A DNA stretch of 64,000 nucleotides from an uncultured Akkermansia sp. (GTDB taxonomy: Bacteria; Bacteroidota; Bacteroidia; Flavobacteriales_D; Crocinitomicaceae). Location of the stretch: positions 1,916 through 65,915 of the forward strand of contig CAZOAH010000011.1 of NCBI GenBank assembly GCA_964577845.1, in the 5' to 3' direction. Made by a program: the position numbers and the translations under genes. Below the pieces are notes generated by a model. That model did not search any database and was not told the DNA's origin. It worked only from the letters and a program-made list of their open reading frames with translations. Positions 16,067 to 55,858 of the stretch are shown piece by piece. Every line of letters begins with the position of its first letter. Position 1 is the first letter of the stretch.

Positions 16067-17935
16067 ATGTGTGGAATAGCAGGAATTATTGATTTTGAAA
16101 AAAAGCTTCAACTTAATGAATCCATCCTTCGTCAAATGGCGAAACCACTTACGTTTAGAGGACCTGATCAGGAAGGATATTCCTATCATAATACGCCTAA
16201 TTATTCGTTTGGACTTGCTCACAAACGCCTGAGCATTCTTGATTTGTCGGATGCGGGGAAACAGCCTATGTGGAATACTGAGAAAGACTGTGTCATCGCA
16301 TTTAATGGTGAAATATACAATTTTCCAGTATTGAAAATGCGCCTTGAAAAGGAAGGTGCAAGTTTCAAATCGTCGAGTGATACGGAAGTTCTTCTTGTGG
16401 CTTATCAGCGTTGGGGAATTGATCAAATGCTCAAGGAAATAGAAGGTATGTTTGCTTTCACGTTGATTGATCTATCGAAACAACTTGTTTTTATTGCGCG
16501 TGATCGATTTGGAGAAAAACCACTGTATTACCATTCAAAAGGATTGTTTTTAGCCTTCAGTTCTGATATTCGATCTTTTCAAGCAATTGGAATATCCCGG
16601 GTAATTAACTTGCATGCTTTAGGTTATTTTTTCTCTGAGATGACGACACCAATTGATTCTTCTATTTATTCAGAAATTAAAAAACTTCCACCCGCAACGT
16701 ATATTCAAGTTAGCAACAAGGGAATAATACTAAGCGAATATTGGAATTTAAATTATAAACAAAAAACAACGTTGAGCCTGGAAGAAACGTTGAATCACAC
16801 CGAATTGTTGCTTGAAAAGGCGGTTCAAAAAACCTTGCTCTCCGATGTTCCCGTTGGTTGTTTTTTAAGTGGTGGATTAGATTCATCGCTCGTTTCCTTA
16901 TACGCTGCAAAACACTATTCTACCCAACTTAAAACATTTAGTGTAGGATTTGAGTACGAATCGTTCAATGAACTGCCATACGCTCGTGCTGTTTCGAAAC
17001 AAATCGGTTCTGAACACAATGAAATAATCTTGAACCCAGACGATTTGTCAATTGTCGATGCATTATTAAAAGAATATGGTGAACCATTTGCAGATTCATC
17101 CGCAATCCCAACTTATTATGTTTCCAAATTTGCCGGAAAAAATGTGAAAGTGGCTTTGGGCGGTGATGGTGGTGATGAAGTTTTTGCAGGTTATCGCACC
17201 TACAATCAAGGCTTGCGTATGCAACAATGGTACAACAAACGTTTTTTAGCTGTTCCATTGACAGTCTTGAAAAATCTGACAAATTCAACGAAAGCATCTT
17301 ATTTGTCAGGAGTCATGAAAAAAGACCCTGTAACTTTAGCGGGTGCACTCTACAGAAACATGGGGTTTTCGCAACAGGATTTAAAAGAACTCTTCAATGA
17401 TAAAGGGTTTTATGAAGCTCCAAAACGTGAACATGAACAAGCAATCATCAAAGCTCTGGGAGAAACAACCGATCTATTTGACACTTTACTACACGCTTCA
17501 ATAAAAACGCGTTTGGTGAATGATTACTTGGTAAAAACCGATCGTGCAACCATGTTCAATTCGCTGGAATTAAGAACCCCTTTTTTAGATAAGGATCTTA
17601 TCGAATTCAGCAACAGTCTTCCATATGATTCGATAATGCACCAAGGTAAAAACAAATACATTACCAAAAAAATAGCTGAAAAACATTTCTCAAAGGAGTT
17701 AATATATCGGGAGAAACAAGGGTTTGGCATTCCGATTGGTGAATGGATGAAAAATGTCTGGAGAAAGCAATTTGAAGAAGTGGTATTTTCGCAACAACAA
17801 GTCATACCGTTGAACTATGCGTTTATTGATAAAATTTGGCAAGAACATTTACGCAATGAAAAGGACCATTCGCATCGTTTGTGGATTGTCTATGTTTTTC
17901 ATAAATGGATTCAAAACGAATACTTGGCGGCATGA
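16067..17935 (+). CDS. asnB: Asparagine synthase family glutamine amidotransferase (AsnB/WbpS-like) inside the glycan locus
   Basis: MCGIAG (Cys2 nucleophile), HKRLSILDL, FNGEIYN, PP-loop LSGGLDSS. Confidence 0.85.
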   Translation: MCGIAGIIDFEKKLQLNESILRQMAKPLTFRGPDQEGYSYHNTPNYSFGLAHKRLSILDLSDAGKQPMWNTEKDCVIAFNGEIYNFPVLKMRLEKEGASFKSSSDTEVLLVAYQRWGIDQMLKEIEGMFAFTLIDLSKQLVFIARDRFGEKPLYYHSKGLFLAFSSDIRSFQAIGISRVINLHALGYFFSEMTTPIDSSIYSEIKKLPPATYIQVSNKGIILSEYWNLNYKQKTTLSLEETLNHTELLLEKAVQKTLLSDVPVGCFLSGGLDSSLVSLYAAKHYSTQLKTFSVGFEYESFNELPYARAVSKQIGSEHNEIILNPDDLSIVDALLKEYGEPFADSSAIPTYYVSKFAGKNVKVALGGDGGDEVFAGYRTYNQGLRMQQWYNKRFLAVPLTVLKNLTNSTKASYLSGVMKKDPVTLAGALYRNMGFSQQDLKELFNDKGFYEAPKREHEQAIIKALGETTDLFDTLLHASIKTRLVNDYLVKTDRATMFNSLELRTPFLDKDLIEFSNSLPYDSIMHQGKNKYITKKIAEKHFSKELIYREKQGFGIPIGEWMKNVWRKQFEEVVFSQQQVIPLNYAFIDKIWQEHLRNEKDHSHRLWIVYVFHKWIQNEYLAA

Positions 17936-25267: not shown

Positions 25268-26539
25268 TTATTTTGCTTCCACACTTACCTTCCAAACTGG
25301 AGTGGTATTGTTTGCAAGCGCCACCACACTTACCGCGAATCCAACAAGCCAAAGAAGATCTTTATCGTCATGAACTACCCATTGATTTTCCCGAAAAGCT
25401 AGAGGCACTTTTCCATCTTTCAAAATATCAGATACCAATTTTGAACCTGACAAACCTATTGGTCTCATCCGATCACCATCAATCCATTTTCTAAGTTTTA
25501 ATTCACCAACAATCTTTTCGGGATTCAAGTAAATGGAAAACTTATCGAAAGAATTTGGAAGTTGAACATTTTTTTCAATCACCATTTTTTTGAGGATTTT
25601 CGTATTTTCTTCATTCATTAGAAATCTGAAAGCTGCATCTTCTTTGAATATTTTTTGAATGTCTTGATTGACATTACTCGCTGAAAACTGTAAAAATTTA
25701 CCATTTTCACTTTTTCGGAGTTTGATTAATCTGGAGTAATAAGATGGTTTTATGTCAAACATTCTTAGCAGTTCATTAATTTCCTCTTGATTCATGGAAT
25801 CAAAAATTTGAAATTTAAGAATGTGCGTCTTACAAACCTCATCAAAAATTGGCTTAACATCAAGTTCCAATTGTCTTTGTTTCTCTTGGAATTTTTCAAT
25901 CAAACACAAAACATCACTTTTCAATTTTGGATGTTGGGTTTCCATTTCCGGAATGAAAACATGTCGTAATTTATTTCTCGAATAATCCAATTTCTCATTG
26001 GAAACATCTTCGCGCCATTTGAGGTTTTCATTTAAAGCATATGCATGAATTTCTTTCTTTAAGAAAGGAAGCAAGGGCCTTAAATACATCTCATTTTCTT
26101 CCAACATGCATGACAAACCCATCATCCCTCCTCCCCTTGTCAAGTTGAGAAAAAAAGTTTCAATTTGATCATCTGCGTGATGCGCCAATAAAATTTTGGT
26201 ATTTCCATCATCAAAAGAATTAAAAAAATCATACCTCACTTTTCTTGCCTCTTGCTGAAGATTTCCGCCGAAAGTTTTAAGCTGTGATTTTAAATCTGTA
26301 TTCAAATCAAAATAATCTATACTATGGTCTGAACAATATGACTTAATGAATATCGCATCCAAATCGGAATCTTCACCTCGAAGATGATAATTAACATGCA
26401 ATACTATCGGATGAAAATTCAACTTGATCAGAGCATGCAAAAGAACCATGGAATCAATTCCTCCGCTACAAGCAAGCGCAATTCTTTGATTGTGATAAGG
26501 TTGAAGAAAAGCTTTAATATGCGTTTCAATATTACGCAT
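25268..26539 (-). CDS. tilS: tRNA(Ile)-lysidine synthase
   Basis: PP-loop ACSGGIDSMVLLH and LLAHHADDQIETF. ATG at 26539 gives an 8-nt overlap with the pabB stop. Confidence 0.85.
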   Translation of the reverse strand: MRNIETHIKAFLQPYHNQRIALACSGGIDSMVLLHALIKLNFHPIVLHVNYHLRGEDSDLDAIFIKSYCSDHSIDYFDLNTDLKSQLKTFGGNLQQEARKVRYDFFNSFDDGNTKILLAHHADDQIETFFLNLTRGGGMMGLSCMLEENEMYLRPLLPFLKKEIHAYALNENLKWREDVSNEKLDYSRNKLRHVFIPEMETQHPKLKSDVLCLIEKFQEKQRQLELDVKPIFDEVCKTHILKFQIFDSMNQEEINELLRMFDIKPSYYSRLIKLRKSENGKFLQFSASNVNQDIQKIFKEDAAFRFLMNEENTKILKKMVIEKNVQLPNSFDKFSIYLNPEKIVGELKLRKWIDGDRMRPIGLSGSKLVSDILKDGKVPLAFRENQWVVHDDKDLLWLVGFAVSVVALANNTTPVWKVSVEAK

Positions 26540-27731
26540 GCAAGGCCTTAATAATCTTGTCAATCTTTGTTTGGCATTCCTTGAACTCCATTTCAGGCTC
26601 TGATTCAATGGTTATAGCGCTGCCTACAGCGCAAGAAAGGTATTTTTTTTCGGCGTTGTAGATTAAGGTTCTTATCACCACATTTAAATCAAAATCACCA
26701 TTGGGCGCAATATAACCGATTGTTCCGGAATAAAGTCCACGCTTAAAAGACTCATATTCTTCAATAAGTTCCATCGCTCTTTTCTTTGGCGCACCCGTCA
26801 TTGACCCCATGGGAAAAGTTGCCTTTAATATGTCAAGAAAAGTAATATTCTCACGCAGTTCACATGAAACAGTAGAAATCATTTGGTGTACCGTCTCAAA
26901 AGTGTAAATACCACAAAGTTCATCAACTTTAACACTGGACTTTGCTGCCACCTGTGACAAATCGTTTCGAACTAAATCAACAATCATGATATTTTCTGAT
27001 CGTTCTTTTGGATTGTTTCTTAATTGTTCTTTGATTTTTTCATCCTGTTTTTCATCAAACCCTCTTGGTGCGGTTCCCTTTATTGGCTGAGTTATAAGTT
27101 TATTACCTTCTTTCTTCAAGAAACGTTCAGGACTTCCACAGAAAATTGAAAATTCATCAAATTGGACATAAGCCGCAAAAGGCGCTTGTGTCACTTCGTT
27201 CATTTTAAAAAAAGCATCCATTGGAAAATTCAATTCGCAGTGCTCCGCATAAAATTCCTGACAAAAATTAACTTCATAAATATCGCCTCTTTGAATGTGT
27301 TTTTTTAATTGATGAACTGTCTCAATATATGTTTCAAAATCTATTCGTGATTGAAAATCAATTTGATAATTGTGAAAATTTCGATCGGTTTCTTCTTCCA
27401 AAAAGGCACTCAAAAAATCTAAACTCTCATTGTTGCGTTCGCCTTTGAGAAAAGAAATTTCTTCCCTATTGATCTTCACCACATATTCTGGAATCCAAAA
27501 AATTGCATCTGGAAAACTTAATCCATCTTCATTAGTCGAAATTAGTGGGTAAAATCGATTTTTCAAATCGTAAGAAAGGCACATGAATATGTATTCTGAA
27601 TTGTTTTTATTCAGAAAATCTTCTATTTTCTGAAAGCCATCTGAAACTTTTAAAATACACCTGCGCAGCTCACCGAACGCAAGAATTCCTGAGCCGTCAT
27701 TACTGTTTAAATATGCCTTGGTACTGAACAC
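26532..27731 (-). CDS. pabB: Aminodeoxychorismate synthase component I (chorismate-binding enzyme)
   Basis: GSPERFL, IKGTAPRG, PMGSMTGAPK, RGLYSGTIGY. GTG start. Confidence 0.8.
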   Translation of the reverse strand: MFSTKAYLNSNDGSGILAFGELRRCILKVSDGFQKIEDFLNKNNSEYIFMCLSYDLKNRFYPLISTNEDGLSFPDAIFWIPEYVVKINREEISFLKGERNNESLDFLSAFLEEETDRNFHNYQIDFQSRIDFETYIETVHQLKKHIQRGDIYEVNFCQEFYAEHCELNFPMDAFFKMNEVTQAPFAAYVQFDEFSIFCGSPERFLKKEGNKLITQPIKGTAPRGFDEKQDEKIKEQLRNNPKERSENIMIVDLVRNDLSQVAAKSSVKVDELCGIYTFETVHQMISTVSCELRENITFLDILKATFPMGSMTGAPKKRAMELIEEYESFKRGLYSGTIGYIAPNGDFDLNVVIRTLIYNAEKKYLSCAVGSAITIESEPEMEFKECQTKIDKIIKALHA

Positions 27732-30086: not shown

Positions 30087-31994
30087 ATGTGCGGAATATC
30101 AGGATTTTTTGATTTTAACAGCTATTCCACTCCGGAAATTTTAGACAAAATGACCGATGTATTGACGCATCGCGGTCCTGATGGTCGTGGGGTTTATTTT
30201 GACGGAAATAAACATGGTACTCTCGGTCTTGGTCATAGGCGATTATCGATCATTGACTTGAGTGAAACTGGCAAACAACCGATGTCCTTTTCAGAGCTAT
30301 TTATAACCTTTAATGGAGAAATATACAATTATCAGGATATAAGAAAGGATCTAATTTCCAAAGGTCATCAATTTACTGGAAATTCAGATACCGAAGTGAT
30401 CCTTCATGCATATAAGGAATGGGGAACTGCATGTCTTGAAAAGCTAAAAGGCATGTTTTCATTTGTTATTTACGACAGGGAAAAACATAAAATAACCGCA
30501 GTTCGCGATCGTGTTGGTGTAAAACCGCTTTTTTACTACTTACACGAGGGACTATTCATGTTTTCATCGGAATTAAAATCTTTCCACCTTCATCCTAATT
30601 TTGATAAAACACTAAATAAAAATGCGGTAGCTGATTTTATTCAATATGGAAACATTCCTGGTTCACAATCGATATTTAAATTTTGCAATAAACTTCAACC
30701 TGGTCATTATCTTGAATTGGATTTAAGGAATGGTGCACTTTCAGTAAGTCAGTATTGGAACGTTTATGATGCATTTAACAAACCTAAACTAAAAATAGAT
30801 TTTGAGGAAGCAAAAATCATCACGAAAAATAAGCTGAAAGAAGCTTTTGAATTGCGAATGGTGGCTGACGTTCCAGTGGGAGTATTTCTAAGCGGAGGAT
30901 ATGACAGCACATGTGTCACCGGATTACTTCAACAAAACATTACAGAAAAACTGAAAACTTTCACCATTGGTGTTCCCGATATCGGTTTAAATGAAGCCCC
31001 TTTCGCGAAGGACATCGCTAAGCATTTCGATACAGACCACACCGAACTGAATTGTACCGTTAAAGATGCATTGGACTTGATTACGGACCTTCCTTTCTTT
31101 TATGATGAACCGTTTGCTGACAGTAGCGCTATTCCAACGATTTTAGTGAGTAAAATGGCTCGGAAACATGTAACGGTAGCATTAAGTGCTGATGGTGGAG
31201 ACGAGCTTTTTGCCGGCTACAATCGTTACGATTACATGCTCAAATATGGGCGCAAACTTGAAAAAATACCGAAAATTTTCAGAAAATCATTGGCAGGAGC
31301 AATGGGATTAATTCCTGCGAATCAAATTCCAATTCTGAAGAAAAAATACAACTTTCATCAACGTTATGAAAAGGTAAAAAAACTGCTTAAAGAGTTTGAT
31401 AATGAAGCTGTAATGATGAGCCTAAGTCAGCAATTTACATCAGAACAATTGGTTGAAATTCTCAAGTTTTCGCACCAAGATAATCGGGATTTGGCATTTT
31501 TCTCCAAAGAACTAAATTCAGAATACAATACACCTTTATCATACATGTTGGCAATTGATTTCCAAACCTATTTGGTAGATGATATCATGCAAAAAGTCGA
31601 TCGTGCTTCAATGGCAGTTAGTTTGGAAGGTCGGGAACCTTTTCTAGACCATGATTTAATCAATTGGGCTGCGCAACTTCCCGACAATTTCAAATACAAT
31701 GCTGGAATTAAAAAATATATTTTGAAGGAAATTGTTCATGATATGGTTCCCAAGGAAATGATGGCAAGACCGAAAATGGGATTTGCAATTCCAATTGCCG
31801 ATTGGTTGGCGAAAGATTTAAAACCTGTTGTTGAAACCTATTTATCCAAAGAATTATTGGCTCAACACAATTTATTTAATACCGATTTTATCGAAAAATT
31901 AAAAACTGATGTTTTCAATGGTAAAAAAGAAATGGCTTCAAAACTTTGGTATTTCTTAATGTTTCAAATGTGGTATGAACGGTGGATGAAATAA
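30087..31994 (+). CDS. asnB: Asparagine synthase family glutamine amidotransferase, second copy
   Basis: MCGISG, HRRLSIIDL, FNGEIYN, PP-loop LSGGYDST. Confidence 0.85.
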   Translation: MCGISGFFDFNSYSTPEILDKMTDVLTHRGPDGRGVYFDGNKHGTLGLGHRRLSIIDLSETGKQPMSFSELFITFNGEIYNYQDIRKDLISKGHQFTGNSDTEVILHAYKEWGTACLEKLKGMFSFVIYDREKHKITAVRDRVGVKPLFYYLHEGLFMFSSELKSFHLHPNFDKTLNKNAVADFIQYGNIPGSQSIFKFCNKLQPGHYLELDLRNGALSVSQYWNVYDAFNKPKLKIDFEEAKIITKNKLKEAFELRMVADVPVGVFLSGGYDSTCVTGLLQQNITEKLKTFTIGVPDIGLNEAPFAKDIAKHFDTDHTELNCTVKDALDLITDLPFFYDEPFADSSAIPTILVSKMARKHVTVALSADGGDELFAGYNRYDYMLKYGRKLEKIPKIFRKSLAGAMGLIPANQIPILKKKYNFHQRYEKVKKLLKEFDNEAVMMSLSQQFTSEQLVEILKFSHQDNRDLAFFSKELNSEYNTPLSYMLAIDFQTYLVDDIMQKVDRASMAVSLEGREPFLDHDLINWAAQLPDNFKYNAGIKKYILKEIVHDMVPKEMMARPKMGFAIPIADWLAKDLKPVVETYLSKELLAQHNLFNTDFIEKLKTDVFNGKKEMASKLWYFLMFQMWYERWMK

Positions 31995-32006
31995 TTCGAA
32001 AATAAT

Positions 32007-33245
32007 TTGGCAAAAGTTCTTTATATATCGTACGATGGAATGACCGACCCATTAGGCCAATCTCAGGTTTTACCCTATCTCATTGGATTAACAATTCAAG
32101 GGCATGAATTTCATCTCATCAGTTTTGAAAAAAAAGGCAGGTTTGAGGAAGATCGAAAAAAAATTGAAAATTTGTGCGACGAATCAGGTATACATTGGCA
32201 TCCATTATCATACACAAAAAAACCACCATTACTTTCAACAATTTATGATGTTAAGCGGATGTCTGCTATGGCAAAATCACTGCACATCAAACATAACTTT
32301 GATATTGTCCACTGTAGAAGTTACATCTCTGGCTTAATAGGTTTGAGCATTAAAGGGAAATATCAGACCAAATTTCTTTTCGATATGAGAGGTTTTTGGG
32401 CAGATGAACGCCTTGAAGGAGGTATTTGGAATGGCAACAACCCAGTTTTCAAAAGGGTTTACAATTTCTTTAAAGGCAAGGAAAAGCAGTTTTTCATCAA
32501 ATCAGATCATATCATCTCTTTAACATCAGCAGGTAAAAAAGAAATCTTGAAAATGCAACCAACTATTTCAGAAAGCAAGATTACTGTAATTCCTTGTTGT
32601 GTAGATTTGGAAAAATTTAATCCAGACAATTATTCTGAGGACCAAATTAATTCAATTAGGCAGGAACTTAATATTCCTGTAAATGACATGGTCTTGGGTT
32701 ATGTCGGATCGATTGGAACATGGTATATGCTCGACGAAATGTTAGATTTTTATATTGTTTTTAGAGAAAAATATACTTCATCAAAATTCCTTTTCATAAC
32801 TGCAGAAAATCCAAATTATATTTTAGAACGCGCTAAATCTAAAAGAATATCAGAGGAATCGATAATAATTAAAAAAAGTACTCATAACAGCGTGCCATCT
32901 TACATACTGACATTTGATTATTCGATCTTCTTTATCAAGCCCACTTTTTCCAAATCTGCCTCATCACCGACAAAACAGGCAGAATTAATGGCGATGGGCA
33001 TACCAATAATTTGCAATTCGGGGGTTGGAGACACTGATACAATTGTTATTGAACATTGTGCAGGAAGTGTAATTCCTAACTTTGAGAGTCTAGCATACAA
33101 ACATCTATTAGATGAAGGAATTAAGTTTGATAAGTCAAAAGCCTCCAAAGCTGCTCAAAATGAATTTGGTCTGAGGGAAGGTGTTGCGAGATATCAAACA
33201 GTTTATGAGTCATTGACTTTCAGTGGATTAACAAAGGAAAAGTAA
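32007..33245 (+). CDS. Glycosyltransferase family 4
   Basis: TTG start. AKVLYISYDGMTDPLGQSQVLPYL N-terminus. PTKQAELMAMGIPII in the C-terminal half. Confidence 0.75.
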   Translation: MAKVLYISYDGMTDPLGQSQVLPYLIGLTIQGHEFHLISFEKKGRFEEDRKKIENLCDESGIHWHPLSYTKKPPLLSTIYDVKRMSAMAKSLHIKHNFDIVHCRSYISGLIGLSIKGKYQTKFLFDMRGFWADERLEGGIWNGNNPVFKRVYNFFKGKEKQFFIKSDHIISLTSAGKKEILKMQPTISESKITVIPCCVDLEKFNPDNYSEDQINSIRQELNIPVNDMVLGYVGSIGTWYMLDEMLDFYIVFREKYTSSKFLFITAENPNYILERAKSKRISEESIIIKKSTHNSVPSYILTFDYSIFFIKPTFSKSASSPTKQAELMAMGIPIICNSGVGDTDTIVIEHCAGSVIPNFESLAYKHLLDEGIKFDKSKASKAAQNEFGLREGVARYQTVYESLTFSGLTKEK

Positions 33246-33249
33246 ACGT

Positions 33250-34329
33250 ATGCCAAAGAGAATTGCTTTTATTGCTCCCTATCCATACGCCCAAGCGCCA
33301 TCGCAGCGTTTTAGATTTGAACAATACTTCGATTTTTTAGAAGATCATGACTACACCTATACATTATTTCCCTTTTATGATTTTAAATCGTGGCAATTAC
33401 TCTACACAAACAATAGCGCATTTCGCAAAGCTTGGGTGGTTTTATCATCCTATTTCAAAAGATTTTCATTGCTATTTAAGCTCCGGAAATTTGATATTGT
33501 TTTCATTCATCGCGAAGCAACACATATCGGTCCTCCGATCATTGAATGGTTTATTGCAAAAGTCTTGAAAAAAAAATACGTTTACGATTTCGATGATGCG
33601 ATTTGGCTACCCAATTACAGTGAAGGAAACTCAAAATTTCACAGATTAAAAGCTTATTGGAAGGTGAAATATTGTATTAAATGGGCATATCGTGTTTCTG
33701 CAGGAAATGCTTTTTTGGCAAATTATGCGAAACAATTTAATAAGAATGTTACCATTTTACCGACAACAATCGACACTGAAAATTATCACAATTTAAAATG
33801 TCAACACAATAAAAAACCGACAATAATAGGTTGGACAGGCACACACACCACGATGCAATACCTTCAAACCGTTGTTCATATACTGCAGGAAATTGAAGAA
33901 AAATATCCAATTGAAATCCACATCATTTCCAATGAAAAACCAGATTTAGATTTGAAAAATTTAGTTTATACAAAATGGCGAAAAGAAACAGAAATTGAAG
34001 ATCTTGTTAAATTTTCTATTGGCATCATGCCTTTAGAAGACAACATATGGGCTGAGGGTAAATGTGGGTTTAAAGGATTGCAATACATGGCTTTAGAAAT
34101 TCCAACAATAATGTCGGCTGTTGGAGTGAATAAAACAATTTTAAATAATGGTGTAAATGGATTTTTAGTAAAGGATTCTAATGACTGGAAAACAGCATTG
34201 GTCTCATTAATTGAGGATCACATGCTAAGACAAACAATTGGTAAAGCAGGGTGTGAAAGCGTGAAAAAAAATTATTCTGTTCTTGCAAACAAAAGTTTAT
34301 TTCTAAGTTTATTGGAGACACAAAACTGA
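33250..34329 (+). CDS. Glycosyltransferase, GT-B fold (GT1/GT4)
   Basis: IGWTGTHTT, GFKGLQYMALEIPTIMSAVGVNKTILNNGVNGFLV. Confidence 0.7.
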   Translation: MPKRIAFIAPYPYAQAPSQRFRFEQYFDFLEDHDYTYTLFPFYDFKSWQLLYTNNSAFRKAWVVLSSYFKRFSLLFKLRKFDIVFIHREATHIGPPIIEWFIAKVLKKKYVYDFDDAIWLPNYSEGNSKFHRLKAYWKVKYCIKWAYRVSAGNAFLANYAKQFNKNVTILPTTIDTENYHNLKCQHNKKPTIIGWTGTHTTMQYLQTVVHILQEIEEKYPIEIHIISNEKPDLDLKNLVYTKWRKETEIEDLVKFSIGIMPLEDNIWAEGKCGFKGLQYMALEIPTIMSAVGVNKTILNNGVNGFLVKDSNDWKTALVSLIEDHMLRQTIGKAGCESVKKNYSVLANKSLFLSLLETQN

Positions 34330-45729: not shown

Positions 45730-46707
45730 TTATTTTAATGTGAAGCTATCAGAACCGATTAACATTCCGTCACAATAAATCTTAATTTTATAATTTCCTG
45801 AAAGCGCTGTTTGTCCTTTCAAATCATAATAAATTGTAACATCTACACTTTGATTTCTGTAATCTATTTCTTTTTTATCTGAATAAGAAATTGGACCACT
45901 ATCAGTTTGAAGCACATTGGTTGATTTGGACTGCATTGTTTTACCATCCGGATTCATAATCTGCATGTAGATTACTTTTGTACCTGCTGACGCTAACGTA
46001 TTTTCTGACAAGGTAAAGGAAGAACGTATTTGAACTGTATTTTTGGCTTTTGTTGTTACTTCTGAAGTATTGTTCAACTTCATTTTTAGCGCCTCAGTAA
46101 CAATCCCATAAGCCTGTAACTTTGCCCCTTTTTTAACCTGCTCTGCCTTTTGTTCAGCATCAGCTTTATAGACATCTCTTTCTTCTATTGTTGAATTCAA
46201 TTTAACCGTTCTATCATCTAGTTCTCTTGTCAAATTATCTTTTTCCTCATTCAATTTGACAATATCACTCACATAGCCCCGCATTATTTCTCTCAAAGTC
46301 TCATTCTCTCTTTTAAGTTTTGCCAATTGAGATGCATTCATATTTTTTGTGCTGTTTATTTCGTTAATTAAGGCTTGAATTTTTGCCTTTTGAATATTCA
46401 ATGAGTCTGCTTTGCTTTTGTCTTGCTCAATTAACGCATCATATGTCTGAAGCATGTTTAAAAAATCTGCTTTTAAATCGCTTGCAGTATTAATATCTCT
46501 ATCTCCTAAGTTAGCTGAGAGCAATTTCTTTAATCCATCTAATTCAGTTTGACTTTTTGTGAAACCTTCAGAGCAAGCATTTAACTCCTCATTTTTTTGC
46601 GACCACAAATAGGCCATATAACCGATACCTCCGATAAGAAGTAAAATTATGGCCATTAAAATTAAGGATGTCTTTTTTCCACCATCATTTCTATCTTCTT
46701 CAGTCAT
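45730..46707 (-). CDS. Membrane-anchored coiled-coil protein with a C-terminal beta-rich domain (hypothetical)
   Basis: TM helix SLILMAIILLLIGGIGYMAYLW, then about 170 aa of heptad-like K/E/L-rich sequence. ATG at 46707 chosen because a -7 box lies inside the longer track ORF. Confidence 0.6.
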   Translation of the reverse strand: MTEEDRNDGGKKTSLILMAIILLLIGGIGYMAYLWSQKNEELNACSEGFTKSQTELDGLKKLLSANLGDRDINTASDLKADFLNMLQTYDALIEQDKSKADSLNIQKAKIQALINEINSTKNMNASQLAKLKRENETLREIMRGYVSDIVKLNEEKDNLTRELDDRTVKLNSTIEERDVYKADAEQKAEQVKKGAKLQAYGIVTEALKMKLNNTSEVTTKAKNTVQIRSSFTLSENTLASAGTKVIYMQIMNPDGKTMQSKSTNVLQTDSGPISYSDKKEIDYRNQSVDVTIYYDLKGQTALSGNYKIKIYCDGMLIGSDSFTLK

Positions 46708-46730
46708 AGCTAAAAAATTATAAACAATTA

Positions 46731-46738
46731 CAAATGTA
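46731..46738 (-). promoter_or_regulatory. Candidate -7 box (TAnnTTTG) for the coiled-coil/RRM/crotonase genes
   Basis: Minus strand reads TACATTTG, 24 nt upstream of the ATG at 46707. Confidence 0.35.
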
Positions 46739-46785
46739 AGCATTACAATGTACGGATTGAAATGTTACATTATTTTTTACGAAAA

Positions 46786-48374: not shown

Positions 48375-48626
48375 TTAAGCTTGATGAATCTCAAAAGAAT
48401 AGGTTTCCATGATTTGATTGCACAGCAATTTCTTACAAGCATCTTCAACTTTTAAAGAAGCCTCTTCAGTTGATGAAGCATCAATAAACAATCTGACATG
48501 ACGACCAATTCTTACGTCTTCGATTTCAGGAAGGCCTATACTTTTCATGGTGTTGGATACTGCTTTTCCTTGTGGATCAAGTAAGGCATCGTGTGGCATT
48601 ACGTCAATTTCTGCTCTGAACTTCAT
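48375..48626 (-). CDS. purS: Phosphoribosylformylglycinamidine synthase subunit PurS
   Basis: 83 aa. ALLDPQGKAVSNTMKSIGL. Confidence 0.85.
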   Translation of the reverse strand: MKFRAEIDVMPHDALLDPQGKAVSNTMKSIGLPEIEDVRIGRHVRLFIDASSTEEASLKVEDACKKLLCNQIMETYSFEIHQA

Positions 48627-49449
48627 TTTTTTGTTTTTGTAAATTGAAATTAAAGATGGATAAAATTAGGTATAAAAATACAATTATAGGTATCGACCAA
48701 ACTTTCAGCGATATAATTAAAACCGCACTTATTGAAAGAAAACCATACTTAATGTAGTTCGATTTCCAATCGAAGGTTGAAAATTTCAAAGCCATTAATG
48801 GAATCTCTGTAATCATTAAAAAGGCCATTACAATGGTTATTGCACCAACAATATAAGTGTCAAAAATGTATAGATATGGTCTTGGATCAAAGGACCATTT
48901 TCCAAAATCAAACCAAAGTAGTAATGGAAAAAAGGTTAAAAATAAAGTGTTTAGTGGTGTCGGAACTCCTAAAAATCCATTTGATTGCCGCTTATCTAAA
49001 TTAAATTTTGCCAGTCGAAACATCGAAAGGATAGGAATTATTAATGCGATTAACGGAAAGTACTTGATTGATGCATCCATACCATTTGGCACACCATAAA
49101 AAAGCGCGTTCACCCATGTATTCCATTCATAGTGAACGTGGGAGCTAAATGCTTCCTTATTATATACAGGTCCTCCGAAATTTATTGTGACAACCAGTAC
49201 AACCATCATCATTATTCCGGGAGCAACACCAAAAGACACAACATCAGCAAGGGAATCCAGCTGTTTTCCCAATTCACTATTTGACTTAAATATTCGGGCA
49301 GCAAAACCATCAAGAAAATCAAAAGATGCTGCAAAAAGCAACAATATAGGCGCCCAATCTAAACGACCACTAACTGAACATAAAATACTAATTAAACCAC
49401 AAAATAGATTTGAGGCAGTTAGGATATTGGGCAAGGTGAATAACTTCAT
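48604..49449 (-). CDS. pssA: CDP-diacylglycerol--serine O-phosphatidyltransferase (CDP-alcohol phosphatidyltransferase family)
   Basis: DFLDGFAARIFKSNSELGKQLDSLADVVSFG, i.e. the motif D(x2)DG(x2)AR...G(x3)D(x3)D. Confidence 0.85.
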   Translation of the reverse strand: MKLFTLPNILTASNLFCGLISILCSVSGRLDWAPILLLFAASFDFLDGFAARIFKSNSELGKQLDSLADVVSFGVAPGIMMMVVLVVTINFGGPVYNKEAFSSHVHYEWNTWVNALFYGVPNGMDASIKYFPLIALIIPILSMFRLAKFNLDKRQSNGFLGVPTPLNTLFLTFFPLLLWFDFGKWSFDPRPYLYIFDTYIVGAITIVMAFLMITEIPLMALKFSTFDWKSNYIKYGFLSISAVLIISLKVWSIPIIVFLYLILSIFNFNLQKQKNEVQSRN

Positions 49450-49590
49450 TAAAAAATCAAAATCTAAATCAGAATATAAAAATTGAATTCCGTAAATTTA
49501 CCTTTTAATATTACAGAGTCAAAAGCGGAGTATACAATTTTTTTACGATTATGGTGTTAAGTAATTGAAATTTTTAATCTCTACCGATAA

Positions 49591-50685
49591 ATGAAGTCGA
49601 TTATCATTTGTGTTATAAGTATAATTTCTTTTCAGCTTTATGGACAAGATGGTTCGCTTGCTCCGAAATACTCGAACGAATTTTTATCTATTGGAATAGG
49701 CGCAGACGCTCTCGGATTGGGGAATGCAGTGGTTGGCCAAACTTCAGGTGTAAACTCGGGTTATTGGAATCCAGCAGGATTAACCAAGGTTAATGATTGG
49801 CTAGAAGTTGGATTAATGCATTCTGAGTACTTTGCTGGAATTGCAAAATATGATTATTTGGGTTTGGCGCACAAGATCGATGACAAAAGTGCGGTTGGTT
49901 TTTCAGTAATTAGATTTGCTGTTGATGACATTCCAAACACAACGCAACTCATAGACAATGCAGGCAACATTGATTATGACAAAATAACCAGTTTTACTGC
50001 TGCCGATTATGCATTTTTAACAAGTTACTCCAGAAAACTTGGAGTTGAAGGACTTAGTGTTGGTGGAAACTTCAAAGTAATTCATAGGAAAGTAGGTGAT
50101 TTTGCTAAATCGTGGGGTTTTGGTTTGGATGCTGGCATTCAATATGATTTGGGAAACAAATGGAAATTTGGCGGCATGTTACGTGACGTGACTTCAACTT
50201 TCAATGCTTGGGTTTTCACTTTGGACGATGCTACAAAAGAGGTATTTCTTGCCACTGGAAACGATTTACCTGAAAATGGACTTGAACTCACTTTGCCAAA
50301 ACTTATTCTTGCTGGATATAGAAAATTTGACATCACTGAATCTGGTTTGTATGCCTCTTGTGAATTGGACTTGGATGTAAGTACTGATGGTAGAAGAAAT
50401 ACATTAATAAGAACCGGATTGTTTTCAATTGATCCCCACATGGGGATTTCGGTAGGATTTAAAAACTATGTTACAGTTCGAGCGGGTTTTTCAAATTTTC
50501 AATATGTTAAAAATTTTGACGATAGTCAATCTTTAAATTTTCAACCAAACATTGGTTTAGGAGTGAATCTTAAGAATTTTTATCTTGATTACGCATTCAC
50601 CGATATAGGTGATGCATCCGTTGCGCTATATTCGCACGTCATATCTTTAAGATTGAAATTGAAAAAACCTTCCAATATGAAGTGA
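49591..50685 (+). CDS. PorV/PorQ-family T9SS-associated outer-membrane beta-barrel protein
   Basis: Signal peptide. The N-terminal motif IGADALGLGNAVVGQTSGVNSGYWNPAGL parallels the PorV motif (DAR..GMG...WNPA). Alternating beta-strand pattern throughout. The stop is 1 nt before the C25 gene start. Confidence 0.65.
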   Translation: MKSIIICVISIISFQLYGQDGSLAPKYSNEFLSIGIGADALGLGNAVVGQTSGVNSGYWNPAGLTKVNDWLEVGLMHSEYFAGIAKYDYLGLAHKIDDKSAVGFSVIRFAVDDIPNTTQLIDNAGNIDYDKITSFTAADYAFLTSYSRKLGVEGLSVGGNFKVIHRKVGDFAKSWGFGLDAGIQYDLGNKWKFGGMLRDVTSTFNAWVFTLDDATKEVFLATGNDLPENGLELTLPKLILAGYRKFDITESGLYASCELDLDVSTDGRRNTLIRTGLFSIDPHMGISVGFKNYVTVRAGFSNFQYVKNFDDSQSLNFQPNIGLGVNLKNFYLDYAFTDIGDASVALYSHVISLRLKLKKPSNMK

Positions 50686-50686
50686 T

Positions 50687-53600
50687 ATGAAAAAGTTGTT
50701 TGTTTTCATTGCCATTTTATCATGTGTTTTATATTCCGAAACATTAAATGCTCAAGTTTATGGGAATGAATGGATAAACTACAATCAAAAGTATTACGCT
50801 TTTAAGGTTGTTCAATCCGGAATCCACAAATTGGATCACTCAACATTAGTTTCATCAGGAATTCCTGTTTCATTATTTTCAAGTTCGAACATTCAAATTT
50901 TTGGGAAAGAAAGTGAAATACCAATTTACATTGAAGATGGCGGTGACAACCAGATCAATTCTGGAGATTTTATTCTTTTCTATGCCGAAAAAAATGATGG
51001 TTGGTTGGACACTAGTTTATATGAAAATCCTGAAGACCTCGGTAATCCAAAATACAGTTTATATAACGATACTATTGAGTATTTCTTTACATGGAACAGT
51101 CAAAACAGTAACAAACGATTTGTCGTTGAAAGTGATCAAGCCATTACCAATTATACTCCATCAAATTATGTTTTATTTGAGAAATTTCAATCATTTAACA
51201 GTGCCTACAACGAAGGAGAAAAAACCTCTGATGCGTCAAGTTCTTTTTACACTTCTGGAGAAGGCTGGGGACTTTCACCTGTAAATGGCGCCAGTGGATT
51301 CACGTGGACAAATTGGAGCAGTACCGTTTTGGATCATATTTATCAAGGACCAGACGCTCCTGATGTACTATACAATGCCGTAACAGTTGGTGTTTCCAAT
51401 GCAAATTTTACCGGTACAGGAAACCACCATTCGCGACACACAGTTGGAGCAAGTAATATAGTTATTGCGGATTCAATTTTTCAAGGCTACAAAGCCATTC
51501 ATTTCAATAAAAGTTTTAATCCAAACATAATACCCGCATCTGGTCAGACAAATTATAAAGTTTCGATTGTAAATGATCAAGGGGCGACAACGGATTTTCA
51601 ATCATTGAATTACTGGTCTTTTCTTTACCCCAGAAATCCTTCAGTTGGGAGTTTGATGAATTCATCTTTTAAGGTAATTAACAGTGCTTCGCAAACAAAA
51701 ATTAGAATTGATTTATCAAATATTACATCTTCAAATCCTGTTTTATTTGTTTTGGGTACAGCTCCAAAAAAAATCGCGTTAATACCAAATGGTAGCAACT
51801 ATTCTCTATTATTCGCCAATAGTCCCGATGGATCTGATCAAAAGGTTGTGATTGAAGATGCTTCTAATTTTAAAGTGATTAATTCATTGAAGGCTGTCAA
51901 TGGAAATGGAAGTTTTAATAATTATGCAAATACATCTATTTATAATGTTGAGCAGGCATTATTGATGATATATCACCCTAAATTGCAATCCGCGTCTGTA
52001 GAATACGCCTCATACCGCTCCAGCGATCCGAACGGAGGAAACTACAATGTAATTCTTGCCAATATCAATGAACTTTATCAACAATATGGGGGAGGAATTC
52101 CAAAACATATTAATGGAATAAGAAGATTTGCTCATCACATTTACGACTTGGCTACAGAAAAACCTTTGGGCTTGTTTTTAATGGGTAAAGGTATTCGAGA
52201 GGCGAATGTTTCTGGACTTTCTTCCACTGGTCCGGGAACTCGAAATAATGCAGTCAATTACGAATTATCACTTATACCTTCATTTGGTCAACCTTCAAGC
52301 GATGTATTAATTACTGCAAATTTACCAGGAACTACAAAATGGACACCGCTAATACCCACTGGAAGAATTTCAGTTCAAACGAATCAGGAACTGTTGGATT
52401 ATTTGGACAAGGTTAAACTATTTGATGCCAACCAAAATCAATCATCTGTTTATAATACTTCAACGAAAGATTGGCAAAAGCATGTATTACATTTTGTAGG
52501 CGGTACAAATGCTACGCAACAAAGTACTTTTCAGAGTTATATGACCACCTTAGAAACAAAAATTGAAAATGAATACTTTGGTGGCTTGGTACATACTTTT
52601 GCAAAAGTTGGGAATACGCCTTTAAGCCCTTCTGAACTGAATGTCATCATGGATCGCATTCAAGAAGGTGTTTCGTTGATAACATTTTTTGGACATGCTG
52701 CTCCAACTACGACTGGATTTGAAATTAACATTGACGAACCAGCAAATTGGAATAACAACGGAAAATACCCTTTGATTTTCACCAACTCTTGTTACAATGG
52801 CAACATATTTCAGTCAGGAAATTCCAAATCTGAAACTTTTGTTGGCATTGCAGGAAGCGGTGCAATTGGATATTTAGGGCAGATTAGTCTAGGTTTTGCA
52901 AATGTTCTAAATTCATACGCAAGTTTATTTTACAAACAAATTACTGAAATAAATTACGGTTCAACGATTGGTGAACAACTGAAAGCGACAGTTGCTTCCA
53001 TGGAATTCCCTGGTGCAGGGCTTGCCATAGAAAGCACAACGACACAAATGACATACAATGGTGACCCCATGATACGCTTAAATTATCATGAAAAACCTGA
53101 GATTGAACTTTTGGAAGAGAACATCACCTTTTCACCTCAAGAACTTGATCTTACCGTTGATAGTATAGAAATGCACATCACTTTAAAAAATTTGGGTAAA
53201 TCGATTACTGATACTTTTTCCTTAGAAGTCACAAGAGATTTTCCAAACAGCAATTCTGATTCAGTTTACGTATTTGCTATTCCTAATTTGGATTACACAT
53301 ATGATTTATCGTTTAAAATGCCTTTACAATCCAATATCGGTGTTGGCCTAAATAATTTTACAATCAAGGCAGATATACCTGATAATATCGATGAAATTTA
53401 TGATGAACTGAACAATAATCAAATCAATAAAACACTTTTTATCAATGTAGAAGGCATTCTTCCTGTAATACCTTATGAGTTTGCTGTTGTTCCGGATGAC
53501 AGCGTTACTTTAAAAGCTTCAACAGTGAATCCACTCGCTGAATTTAATACTTACAGGTTTGAAATAGACACGACAGACTTGTTTAATAGCCCGGAAAAAA

Positions 53601-55858
53601 GATATGCAGTGGTTTCAGGATTTGGAGGTGTAAAAGAAGTAAATCCAAGTCAATGGATATCGGCTTCTTCAGGAATAAACTTGCCATTGGTCTGTGAGGA
53701 CAGTATGGTTTATTTTTGGAGGGTAGCTATTGATGAGCCCAACCCAACTTGGAGGGAAAGTTCTTTTCAATATATTGTTGGTAAATCAGGCTGGGGACAA
53801 GACCATTTCTTTCAATTTAAAAAGAATGGATTTAATGGTATTGCCTATAATACAAGTCAAAGAAAAAGACTTTTTGGGCCTAATTTGAGGCAACTTACTT
53901 GTGACGTAAAAAGTTCTTCAGGCATTCCTGCCATTTATGAAAATGCATATTACCTAGATGGAAATCAAGAAGAATATGGGCTTTGCCTTACTACCCCAAG
54001 TTTATATGTTGCCGTAATTGATCCATTAACAATGGAACCTTGGGGCACTCGATTCTTTGATACCATAATGCAAAATCCAAACAATAACTTTGGCAATGCC
54101 AATGATCTTGGCGCTTGCCGCAATCGGGTAGAAAATTATTTTATTTTTCGACAGAATATCAGTTCTCAACTTGACAATTTCAACAGTATGATGGCCGCAA
54201 TACCAGACAGTCATTATATTCTGGTTTATTCTCCAATAACTGCACTTTATGATCAATGGCCCTCAACCGTATTTTCAACTTTCAGTGCTTTAGGTTCAGA
54301 TAGTATTGTTCCTGGTATTCCAAATTTACCTTTCGCATTTTTCTGCAAAAAAGGAGATACTTCAACAGTGGTTGAAGACATTGCTCAAGTTTTTGGAGAG
54401 GATATTCATATTGAAGCATTACTGGTTGGATCTGATTATATTGGGAAAGAAACATCCACTTTAATTGGACCTTCAGCAAATTGGGGAACTATATACTGGA
54501 AACAAGACGCATTAGAAACACCGACGTCAGACTCAACCATATTGAGTATTGAGGCATATAATGCTGCTGGCATTCTTCAACTTGTTATAGATACACTTTT
54601 TACCGCCAACGATTCAATTCTCTTGCTGAATAATCTGGTTAACGCACAAAATTATCCATTTATAAAATTGTCATCGCGTTACGAAGATTCATTAAACTTC
54701 ACTCCTGCCCAAATTGACAGATGGCATGTGTTGTACACCCCACTCCCTGAGGCCGCCATAGATGGAAGTAATGGCTATACTTGGCTGCCAAATAATGACA
54801 CTATAACCGAAGGACAGGAAGTGAAATTTGCCGTTGATATTAAAAATATTTTCTCTATCCCAATGGACTCAATTTTGGTGTCCTATTGGGTTCAAGACGC
54901 TAATGAAGTAAAGCATCTGATTAATTACAACAGACAGGACTCTTTACTAGTAAATGAAGTATTTAGAGATACCGTGACCTTTTCAACTATTGGTTTAAGC
55001 GGATATAATTCATTATGGATGGATTTAAATCCATATGTAAATGGAAGTTTATACATTACCGACCAACCGGAGCAGACACATTTCAATAATGTGCTTCAGT
55101 TACCATTTTATGTTATAAATGACGAAGAGCACCCTATTTTGGATGTCACTTTTGATGGTCAGCATATCTTAAATGGCGATATTGTTTCTCCTTTGAGTGA
55201 AATTCTTATATCTCTAAAGGATGAAAATCCATATTTAATTATGGACAACATCTCAGACACTACTCTTTTTGGTGTTTACATAACAGATCCAAATGGCTTA
55301 CAAAAGCGAATTCCATTCATTGATGCAAACGGAAATACCATAATGCAATGGATTCCTGCAGATAGTCAAAACAAGAGGTTTAAAATTATTTATCCTGGAA
55401 ATTTTGATTTGGATGGGATTTATTCCCTTCAAGTACAAGGATCTGATAGAAGCGGAAACCTTTCTGGAGACTTGGAATACCGTATAAACTTCGAGGTAGT
55501 TCATGAATCTACGATAACGCGTTTATTGAACTATCCAAATCCTTTTAGTACAAGTACAAAATTTGTGTTTACACTAACAGGTTCAGAAGTTCCTGATGAA
55601 ATACTTATTCAAATTTTGACTGTTACAGGAAAAGTGGTTCGAGAAATCACAGAAGATGAATTGGGTTCCATTCATATTGGAAGAAACATTACAGAATATG
55701 CATGGGATGGACGAGATGAATTTGGTGACCTTCTTGCAAATGGGGTTTATTTATACCGTGTGCTATCCGAAATTAATGGTGAATCCATAAAACTTCGTGA
55801 AACAAATGCGGACCAATATTTCACCAAAGAGTTTGGAAAAATGTACTTGTTTAGGTAA
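50687..55858 (+). CDS. PorU-like C25 (gingipain-family) cysteine peptidase, 1723 aa, with a T9SS-type C-terminal domain
   Basis: Signal peptide. PorU-like N-terminus (IQIFGKESEIPIYIEDGGDNQINSGDFILFYAEKNDGW). His670 in FFGHAAP (52694-52696) and Cys702 in FTNSCYNG (52790-52792), 32 residues apart as in the C25 dyad. C-terminal LLNYPNPFSTSTKFVFTL...WDGRDEFGDLLANGVYLYRV. Confidence 0.75.
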   Translation: MKKLFVFIAILSCVLYSETLNAQVYGNEWINYNQKYYAFKVVQSGIHKLDHSTLVSSGIPVSLFSSSNIQIFGKESEIPIYIEDGGDNQINSGDFILFYAEKNDGWLDTSLYENPEDLGNPKYSLYNDTIEYFFTWNSQNSNKRFVVESDQAITNYTPSNYVLFEKFQSFNSAYNEGEKTSDASSSFYTSGEGWGLSPVNGASGFTWTNWSSTVLDHIYQGPDAPDVLYNAVTVGVSNANFTGTGNHHSRHTVGASNIVIADSIFQGYKAIHFNKSFNPNIIPASGQTNYKVSIVNDQGATTDFQSLNYWSFLYPRNPSVGSLMNSSFKVINSASQTKIRIDLSNITSSNPVLFVLGTAPKKIALIPNGSNYSLLFANSPDGSDQKVVIEDASNFKVINSLKAVNGNGSFNNYANTSIYNVEQALLMIYHPKLQSASVEYASYRSSDPNGGNYNVILANINELYQQYGGGIPKHINGIRRFAHHIYDLATEKPLGLFLMGKGIREANVSGLSSTGPGTRNNAVNYELSLIPSFGQPSSDVLITANLPGTTKWTPLIPTGRISVQTNQELLDYLDKVKLFDANQNQSSVYNTSTKDWQKHVLHFVGGTNATQQSTFQSYMTTLETKIENEYFGGLVHTFAKVGNTPLSPSELNVIMDRIQEGVSLITFFGHAAPTTTGFEINIDEPANWNNNGKYPLIFTNSCYNGNIFQSGNSKSETFVGIAGSGAIGYLGQISLGFANVLNSYASLFYKQITEINYGSTIGEQLKATVASMEFPGAGLAIESTTTQMTYNGDPMIRLNYHEKPEIELLEENITFSPQELDLTVDSIEMHITLKNLGKSITDTFSLEVTRDFPNSNSDSVYVFAIPNLDYTYDLSFKMPLQSNIGVGLNNFTIKADIPDNIDEIYDELNNNQINKTLFINVEGILPVIPYEFAVVPDDSVTLKASTVNPLAEFNTYRFEIDTTDLFNSPEKRYAVVSGFGGVKEVNPSQWISASSGINLPLVCEDSMVYFWRVAIDEPNPTWRESSFQYIVGKSGWGQDHFFQFKKNGFNGIAYNTSQRKRLFGPNLRQLTCDVKSSSGIPAIYENAYYLDGNQEEYGLCLTTPSLYVAVIDPLTMEPWGTRFFDTIMQNPNNNFGNANDLGACRNRVENYFIFRQNISSQLDNFNSMMAAIPDSHYILVYSPITALYDQWPSTVFSTFSALGSDSIVPGIPNLPFAFFCKKGDTSTVVEDIAQVFGEDIHIEALLVGSDYIGKETSTLIGPSANWGTIYWKQDALETPTSDSTILSIEAYNAAGILQLVIDTLFTANDSILLLNNLVNAQNYPFIKLSSRYEDSLNFTPAQIDRWHVLYTPLPEAAIDGSNGYTWLPNNDTITEGQEVKFAVDIKNIFSIPMDSILVSYWVQDANEVKHLINYNRQDSLLVNEVFRDTVTFSTIGLSGYNSLWMDLNPYVNGSLYITDQPEQTHFNNVLQLPFYVINDEEHPILDVTFDGQHILNGDIVSPLSEILISLKDENPYLIMDNISDTTLFGVYITDPNGLQKRIPFIDANGNTIMQWIPADSQNKRFKIIYPGNFDLDGIYSLQVQGSDRSGNLSGDLEYRINFEVVHESTITRLLNYPNPFSTSTKFVFTLTGSEVPDEILIQILTVTGKVVREITEDELGSIHIGRNITEYAWDGRDEFGDLLANGVYLYRVLSEINGESIKLRETNADQYFTKEFGKMYLFR

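Follow-up and report, generated by a model that had tools for sequence, protein, structure and literature searches.

The 64,000-nucleotide stretch of DNA analysed here (the window, positions 1,916 to 65,915 of contig CAZOAH010000011.1 in the Crocinitomicaceae assembly GCA_964577845.1) carries two adjacent genes, porV2 and porU2, whose products are related to the T9SS (type IX secretion system) proteins PorV and PorU. On balance, we find it probable that porV2–porU2 is a two-gene operon for a second PorU/PorV-type module, exported by the T9SS, docked at the cell surface and acting on distinct substrates or a distinct acceptor. This overall judgement combines two parts: the pair is very likely a paralogous, deeply diverged second PorU/PorV-type module, and the proposed docking and sorting mechanism has roughly an even chance of being correct. 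As a kind, the pair is already known, because NCBIfam and UniRef name a 'putative PorU2/PorV2' family, of which it is an ordinary member; it is no new kind of system. The first-pass annotation of the window, made from the sequence alone, could not say whether such pairs had been named. They have been, in NCBIfam (NF052324 and NF052325) and in UniRef, where orthologues are already called PorV2, and in the literature we found no paper that names or studies PorU2, PorV2 or a second PorU, all the name matches being artefacts of superscript citations.

Assignment and architecture of PorV2 and PorU2

The gene porV2 (49591..50685, plus strand) encodes a 364-aa outer-membrane beta-barrel protein of the PorV/PorQ family with a signal peptide and a predicted mature N-terminus at Gln19. 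A single base separates its stop codon from the ATG of porU2 (50687..55858, plus strand, stop codon included), whose product is a 1723-aa PorU-like C25 cysteine peptidase or transpeptidase. The first-pass annotation had described both reading frames, the 1-nt gap and the barrel-like nature of the smaller protein with its PorV/PorQ-type motif GADALGLGNAVVGQTSGVNSGYWNPAGL, all of which are borne out here. Its proposal that this is a paralogous second pair rather than the canonical one is also supported, with the 'sortase' and 'shuttle' roles as predictions. Three outcomes that it had named as refuting were checked, namely a merely divergent canonical pair, a catalytic dyad out of register with the C25 residues and a FadL-type transporter, and none of them was observed.

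Both proteins are placed by equivalog models of NCBIfam with curated cut-offs. PorU2 matched NF052324 ('putative type IX secretion system sortase PorU2') with 670.2 bits over residues 6–910 (equivalog-domain cut-off, 450 bits), and PorV2 matched NF052325 ('putative type IX sorting system protein PorV2') with 482.2 bits over residues 10–358 (cut-off, 325 bits). In architecture, length and pairing nothing sets the window pair apart from this family, which is itself labelled 'putative'. In contrast, the pair failed the cut-offs of the canonical equivalogs: the peptidase scored 179.7 bits against the required 420 on the PorU model NF033707 (T9SS_sortase; match to residues 33–812), and the 364-aa protein scored 40.1 against 250 on the PorV model NF033710. 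It did slightly better on the model for PorQ (NF033711), a protein of close size, with 60 bits, still below the cut-off of 220. The 364-aa protein does pass the PorV/PorQ subfamily model NF033709 (98 bits, cut-off 90, residues 30–200); its match to the Pfam PorV family PF19572 stayed below threshold (22.2, gathering cut-off 27), and phmmer gave a weak match of PorV2 to Flavobacterium johnsoniae PorV (6h3i_F, E = 9e-4). As controls, Fluta_2551 scored 405 bits on the canonical PorV model (cut-off 250), and the first 560 aa of Fluta_2550 alone scored 320 bits on the PorU model and passed the 'PorU long form' N-terminal model. A FadL/OmpP1-type transporter was also considered for the 364-aa protein and ruled out, the sole match being FilD with 18 bits against a cut-off of 970.

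PorU2 begins with a predicted Sec signal peptide (residues 1–22, 50687..50752), MKKLFVFIAILSCVLYSETLNA, followed by Gln23 after the likely cleavage site; the AlphaFold 2 (AF2) model shows a low-confidence N-terminal helix there. Gln23 (50753–50755) is kept in 139 of 145 family representatives; here and below, the representatives are the 150 sequences obtained by clustering at 50%, and residues were counted only where the respective columns are covered. Glutamine is thus the predicted first mature residue of both PorV2 (Gln19, 49645–49647) and PorU2. An N-terminal pyroglutamate is a habit of exported proteins of Bacteroidota, which a Gln start would fit.

The signal peptide is followed by PorU-like N-terminal beta-rich domains (residues 23–425, 50753..51961), which lie within the NF052324 match, and by the catalytic domain (residues 426–798, 51962..53080), which is identified by profile and Foldseek matches and contains Pfam family Peptidase_C25 (PF01364, MEROPS family C25; 164 bits, cut-off 23). 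The AF2 model of residues 1–910 has a mean predicted local distance difference test score (pLDDT) of 88.6 and a predicted template modelling score of 0.87. Its best Foldseek match is Porphyromonas gingivalis PorU (6za2), over ~1000 columns with E = 2.4e-28, followed by the gingipains RgpB and Kgp with E ~1e-15 over ~500 columns. As the model matches PorU ahead of the gingipains, the likeness to PorU reaches well past the catalytic domain, in agreement with the PorU-like N-terminus that had been noted at first pass.

The catalytic residues are His670 (codon 52694..52696, motif FFGH) and Cys702 (codon 52790..52792, motif NSCYNG), spaced 32 residues apart. With PorU2 alone, phmmer found no match in the PDB, and a family profile was needed: built from 26 members, it matched P. 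gingivalis PorU (6za2, E = 6e-7) and RgpB (1cvr, E = 9e-4), placing GH670 on His211 and C702 on Cys244 of RgpB; in P. gingivalis PorU, the two residues fall on the GH and C motifs, the latter being TATC. The register of the dyad rests on this sequence alignment of the profile to the PDB, and it agrees with the pair of catalytic residues named in the first-pass annotation. Both residues are kept in all 147 representatives that cover these columns, at identities down to ~30%, and so are the flanking Gly and Asn residues of the motifs. That PorU2 has lost its activity and serves at the surface only as a structural or adhesive protein with a C25-like fold is therefore highly improbable, given this conservation and the high confidence at which the catalytic domain is modelled, even though Ig-like (immunoglobulin-like) domains make up more than half of the protein and the AF2 model has a low-confidence loop at residues 673–676, directly after His670.

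The extra length of PorU2 lies largely in an extension (residues 799–1480, 53081..55126) that is specific to the family and consists of ~4–5 beta-sandwich (Ig/macroglobulin-like) domains and a mixed alpha/beta domain at ~1040–1240. In the AF2 model of residues 800–1723 (pLDDT 86), these form a chain that ends in the C-terminal domain (CTD), so that the additional Ig-like sequence reported at first pass is real, with one domain of a different fold in it. Foldseek matched this model only to generic multi-Ig and macroglobulin arrays, the Ig/CTD part of PorU appearing at rank 24, and no Pfam family was matched within residues 799–1480. The extension is conserved like the catalytic domain (36% and 37% mean identity). 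A BLAST comparison of PorU2 with its canonical counterpart from a single Fluviicola genome gave no match in the extension and detected only the last ~240 residues; the PorU2-specific part is thus an insertion of ~570 residues, made of the beta-sandwich and alpha/beta domains, between the C25/Ig module and a shared C-terminal module. A PorU–PorZ fusion as the source of the extra length was ruled out, as the AF2 model shows beta-sandwich domains and no propeller, and neither Foldseek nor a profile search of the PDB gave a match to PorZ.

The shared C-terminal module comprises a penultimate beta-sandwich domain, common to canonical PorU according to the BLAST alignment (residues 1481–1609, 55127..55513), and a T9SS type-A CTD (residues 1610–1723, 55514..55855). 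In Fluviicola, PorU2 residues 1485–1711 align with residues 1079–1292 of canonical PorU at 31% identity (E = 4e-17), and the family profile aligns the PorU2 C-terminus weakly to the PorU CTD. The CTD, which had been recognized at first pass, makes a marginal pass of TIGR04183 (24.3 bits, cut-off 23, residues 1616–1695). Among diverse representatives no other segment of PorU2 is conserved so well, the mean identity being 66% as against 29–37% in the N-terminal, catalytic and inserted regions. Set against the CTD of canonical PorU from the same genus, the PorU2 CTD contains an inserted, family-specific loop, ETNADQYFTKEF, and ends in the conserved tail GKMYLxR, or, in full, GKMYL[MLIF]R; the motif NYPNPF is found in 108 of 118 full-length tails. 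Full-length representatives range from 1616 to 1814 aa (118 of the 150, the remainder being mostly fragments) and the 120 closest homologues from 1706 to 1740 aa. Thus, total length is a fixed trait of the PorU2 family.

Overall, the window pair resembles canonical PorU–PorV (P. gingivalis PG0026/PorU, 6za2; F. johnsoniae PorV, 6h3i) in its multidomain fold, in the C25 dyad, in a type-A CTD preceded by a penultimate Ig domain, and in a partner barrel that belongs to the PorV/PorQ family. It differs in the profile scores given above, in the ~570 extra residues, in the CTD loop and tail, and in gene order, which is porU then porV in the canonical pair and reversed here.

Coexistence with a canonical pair in Fluviicola and distribution among Bacteroidota

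Evidence that this is a genuine second module comes from Fluviicola genomes in which canonical porU–porV and porV2–porU2 coexist. In Fluviicola taffensis DSM 16823, the described T9SS set includes PorU (AEA44535.1, Fluta_2550), PorV (AEA44536.1, Fluta_2551), PorQ (Fluta_2759) and PorZ (Fluta_1377) (PMC7323717 supplement). We found the canonical PorV of this strain (P0275, identical sequence) on a contig of 4,633,577 bp, that is, on the chromosome, and a contig of the same length, 4,633,577 bp, also carries AEA44445.1/WP_013687215.1 (P0533), which falls in the 90% PorV2 cluster and is 72% identical to the window PorV2. The T9GPred paper contained no locus-level PorU or PorV data for F. taffensis. 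Another Fluviicola genome likewise has two loci. Its canonical one (L084, 4044–9269, on JGI contig Ga0573885_006 of 4,937,621 bp) reads gldJ-like (FGE-sulfatase) – porP/sprF – porU (1298 aa) – porV (422 aa) – ispF, and the other reads pssA / porV2 (P0404) – porU2, the latter encoding a 1729-aa C25 protein. These two loci were taken to lie on one contig, as both are on 4,937,621-bp JGI contigs from the same sequencing run. Whereas the canonical Fluviicola locus adjoins gldJ and porP/sprF, porV2–porU2 does not; a CHU_C protein and a Por_Secre_tail protein are encoded a few kb downstream of the canonical locus. Within one genome, PorV2 and PorV are ~19–24% identical over ~130 residues.

Alternatively, this could be the canonical attachment pair of a lineage that evolves fast, with no other PorU/PorV in the organism. 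In F. taffensis and its relatives the T9SS proteins are indeed unusually divergent, lying outside their expected clades in 14 of the 19 trees (PMC7323717), TXSScan fails on F. taffensis (PMC10515386), and the evidence from the window's own genome is confined to 64 kb. Nevertheless, the presence of both pairs in two Fluviicola genomes, the wide margins by which the canonical cut-offs are missed while the dedicated PorU2 and PorV2 models are passed, and the constant architecture of a family that spans Flavobacteriales, Bacteroidales and Chitinophagales make this explanation very hard to sustain. No canonical porU or porV was found in the window or in the flanks of 82 related loci, where the matches (18–34% identity, with one short fragment at 42%) were PorU2 and PorV2 themselves. 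BLAST of all window open reading frames (ORFs) revealed no paralogue of either protein, and none of the annotated ones (~30 of the 50 that reach 150 aa) encodes a further T9SS component, either beside the pair, as already remarked at first pass, or elsewhere.

When one genome was scanned for each GTDB species, full-length relatives of PorU2 turned up in at least 595 species. Carriers include Crocinitomicaceae, F. taffensis, Crocinitomix algicola, Lishizhenia and Taishania, as well as many metagenome-assembled genomes of Flavobacteriales, Bacteroidales and Chitinophagales. Of the 68 loci for which enough upstream DNA was available, 65 have porV2 as the next gene upstream of porU2 and in the same orientation. 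The commonest junction, seen in 19 loci, is a 4-nt ATGA overlap; porV2 and porU2 are translationally coupled in most species. The inverted order and the greater length of the peptidase, which the first-pass annotation had pointed out in this one locus, are therefore fixed family traits. Of the two proteins, PorV2 is the better conserved (73% as against 48% for PorU2 at locus L020). Two contigs that bear the pair carry unexpected labels, 'uncultured Akkermansia sp.' (L004, CAZQKN010000011.1) and 'Candidatus Competibacteraceae' (L059, CAZUXM010000025.1). The synteny of the former is Crocinitomicaceae-like, and both labels probably reflect mis-binning or mislabelling.

In a 64%-identical relative (3.2-Mb contig), porV2–porU2 occupies the corresponding syntenic position, and the G+C content of the pair (~0.35) equals that of its flanks; for these two reasons the pair is not an island.

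Proposed function and the protease alternative

According to the mechanism that we propose, PorU2 would cross the inner membrane via Sec and be exported over the outer membrane by the T9SS through its CTD. It would then retain this CTD and use it to bind, non-covalently, a barrel of its own, PorV2, on the model of PorU with PorV and of PorZ with PorQ; the CTD of PorU stays bound to PorV and that of PorZ to PorQ (PMC10202324). At the surface, PorU2 would be a cysteine endopeptidase or transpeptidase whose substrates, or whose acceptor, differ from those of canonical PorU. Retention of the CTD for docking on PorV2 is suggested by its being the most conserved part of PorU2, unlike a disposable export tag, by the family-specific loop and GKMYL[MLIF]R tail, and by the high conservation of the barrel.

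Under this proposal, PorV2 is more likely to be a dedicated anchor, like PorQ, than a general cargo shuttle. The likeness to PorZ–PorQ would lie in a protein that is exported by the T9SS and, by means of its retained CTD, docks on a dedicated barrel of the PorV family (PMC10202324). The partners themselves differ, PorZ being a non-catalytic double beta-propeller that presents anionic lipopolysaccharide (A-LPS) and PorU2 a C25 enzyme without a propeller.

Several points weigh against this proposal. Coexistence with a canonical pair was seen in the genus Fluviicola, outside the window's own genome, and three loci (L041, L043 and L064) have a full-length PorU2 with no PorV2-like gene in the 3–6 kb upstream or elsewhere in the locus; their barrel may be encoded elsewhere or may have been lost. 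The interaction between PorU2 and PorV2 is predicted from gene coupling and conservation, and the dependence of PorU2 on the T9SS is likewise a prediction, because the CTD barely passes its model. Transpeptidase and plain peptidase activities are not separable by sequence, and in the literature we found no experiment on any member of the PorU2/PorV2 family.

The principal rival explanation is that PorU2 is a gingipain-like protease, tethered to the surface by PorV2 as its anchor and serving nutrition or remodelling; it would hydrolyse its substrates and neither sort nor attach cargo. PorU2 and the gingipains RgpB and Kgp do have much in common, including the C25 family with its catalytic fold, the His and Cys residues in register, Ig-like domains and a type-A CTD. 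In addition, a long Ig-like stalk is found in surface enzymes and adhesins, no PorZ-type partner for delivery of the acceptor is fused to PorU2 or encoded next to it, and the T9SS tethers proteins to PorV-like barrels by their CTDs (PMC10202324). However, gingipains lack the PorU-type N-terminal domains, have a prodomain, a cleaved CTD and no dedicated barrel gene, and the whole N-terminal 910 aa of PorU2 are nearer to PorU than to the gingipains, both in the much stronger Foldseek match and in the extent of the NF033707 match. The penultimate domain and CTD are also homologous to those of PorU, and the fixed length, the position in the core genome and the very wide vertical distribution are more machinery-like than would be expected of a variable digestive enzyme. 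We therefore regard a plain tethered protease as a rather unlikely, yet serious, alternative to a second PorU/PorV-type module.

The attachment step of the T9SS is understood from a single P. gingivalis complex, PorU–PorV–PorQ–PorZ. A deeply diverged, vertically inherited and catalytically intact pair in at least ~600 species of Bacteroidota implies that a second, unstudied surface branch of sorting or processing exists in many environmental members of the phylum. It offers handles for experiments in the catalytic Cys, in the hyper-conserved CTD tail, likely the docking element, and in the conserved link to a phospholipid synthase gene described below. Among cultured carriers, F. taffensis DSM 16823 and Fluviicola chungangensis have both systems, and in C. 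algicola we saw only the PorU2/PorV2 locus.

Neighbouring genes and the question of a lipid acceptor

Upstream of porV2 lies a 141-bp AT-rich intergenic region (49450..49590) that, judged from its sequence, presumably holds the promoter. On its other side is a divergent pssA-like gene for a CDP-alcohol phosphatidyltransferase (48604..49449, minus strand; PF01066, 65 bits), which narrowly misses the pssA model TIGR00473 (103.5 bits, cut-off 107) and is probably a housekeeping phosphatidylserine synthase. It is the sole neighbour of porV2–porU2 that is conserved across orders: ORF clustering detected it in 45 of the 62 loci, and in 35–37 of these it is the immediate upstream neighbour in divergent orientation, with a median gap of 128 nt; any other gene recurs in at most ~17 loci. 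Genes for Lnt, an LptB-like ATPase, a DUF5686 protein and MBOAT proteins recur near the pair in subsets of loci.

This linkage raises the possibility of lipid-directed sorting, in which PorU2 would transfer substrate C-termini to an aminophospholipid, either phosphatidylserine or phosphatidylethanolamine, supplied through the pssA-like gene, so that PorU2/PorV2 would be a self-contained second system that attaches dedicated cargo to a non-LPS acceptor. There is a precedent in the archaeosortase ArtA, whose lipid anchoring needs PssA and PssD (PMC7157517), and the window PssA-like protein has a weak match to the 'protein sorting system archaetidylserine synthase' model NF038086 (52 bits, cut-off 200). 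The analogy consists in a C-terminal sorting peptidase that is genetically tied to a CDP-alcohol phosphatidyltransferase of the phosphatidylserine-synthase type; the fold and cell compartment of ArtA are unrelated, and the link of PorU2 is one of synteny with a probable housekeeping gene. The recurrence of Lnt, LptB, MBOAT and LpxD genes near the pair would also fit lipid-directed sorting. Against it, no psd gene adjoins the pair, the pssA-like gene is absent from 17 of the 62 loci, the outer leaflet where a T9SS-exported enzyme resides is not expected to hold phospholipids, and we found no literature that links phosphatidylserine synthase to the T9SS. Furthermore, tilS, pabB and purS belong to the same old block, so that the linkage may be historical. 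The link to the pssA-like gene may thus be functional or only ancient synteny, and we consider lipid-directed sorting improbable. If correct, it would provide a bacterial counterpart of lipid anchoring by archaeosortase and PssA, a milder version being a distinct acceptor glycan or cargo class for the second module.

A functional cluster of the LpxD, Lnt, LptB and MBOAT genes with the pair was considered and not adopted, as each occurs in subsets of loci and the housekeeping genes tilS, pabB and purS are found in the same block. In the window, tilS and a gene for a pabB-like chorismate-binding enzyme (25268–27731, minus strand) lie 22 kb from the pair; in other lineages (L036, L046, L070 and L071) tilS/pabB are directly downstream of porU2–lnt, which places the pair within an old block of housekeeping synteny.

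The genes that flank porV2–porU2 in the window are of the housekeeping kind as well. On the upstream side, the divergent pssA-like gene is followed by purS and genes for an aldehyde dehydrogenase, an enoyl-CoA hydratase and rplM; on the downstream side there are convergent genes for a SpoIIE/PP2C phosphatase and lpxD, and beyond lpxD genes for a CDF transporter (plus strand), an E1 dehydrogenase and a DPP-IV-type peptidase (both minus strand). A 337-aa ORF at 45730–46743 (minus strand) had no Pfam or NCBIfam match in the scans made. Its orthologue at locus L002 is listed with DUF8429/DUF8428, and the ORF is kept beside the aldehyde dehydrogenase gene in Crocinitomicaceae loci.

Elsewhere, the window contains a large polysaccharide-biosynthesis region (2665–22732 and 30087–34329, plus strand), with genes for an ABC-2 permease and ATPase, a DegT-type aminotransferase, a polysaccharide deacetylase, several GT4 glycosyltransferases, two asparagine-synthase-like amidotransferases (16067–17935 and 30087–31994), a dehydratase/epimerase and a UDP-GlcNAc 2-epimerase. 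The amino-sugar and amidotransferase genes of this region are reminiscent of the pathway for the linking sugar of A-LPS.

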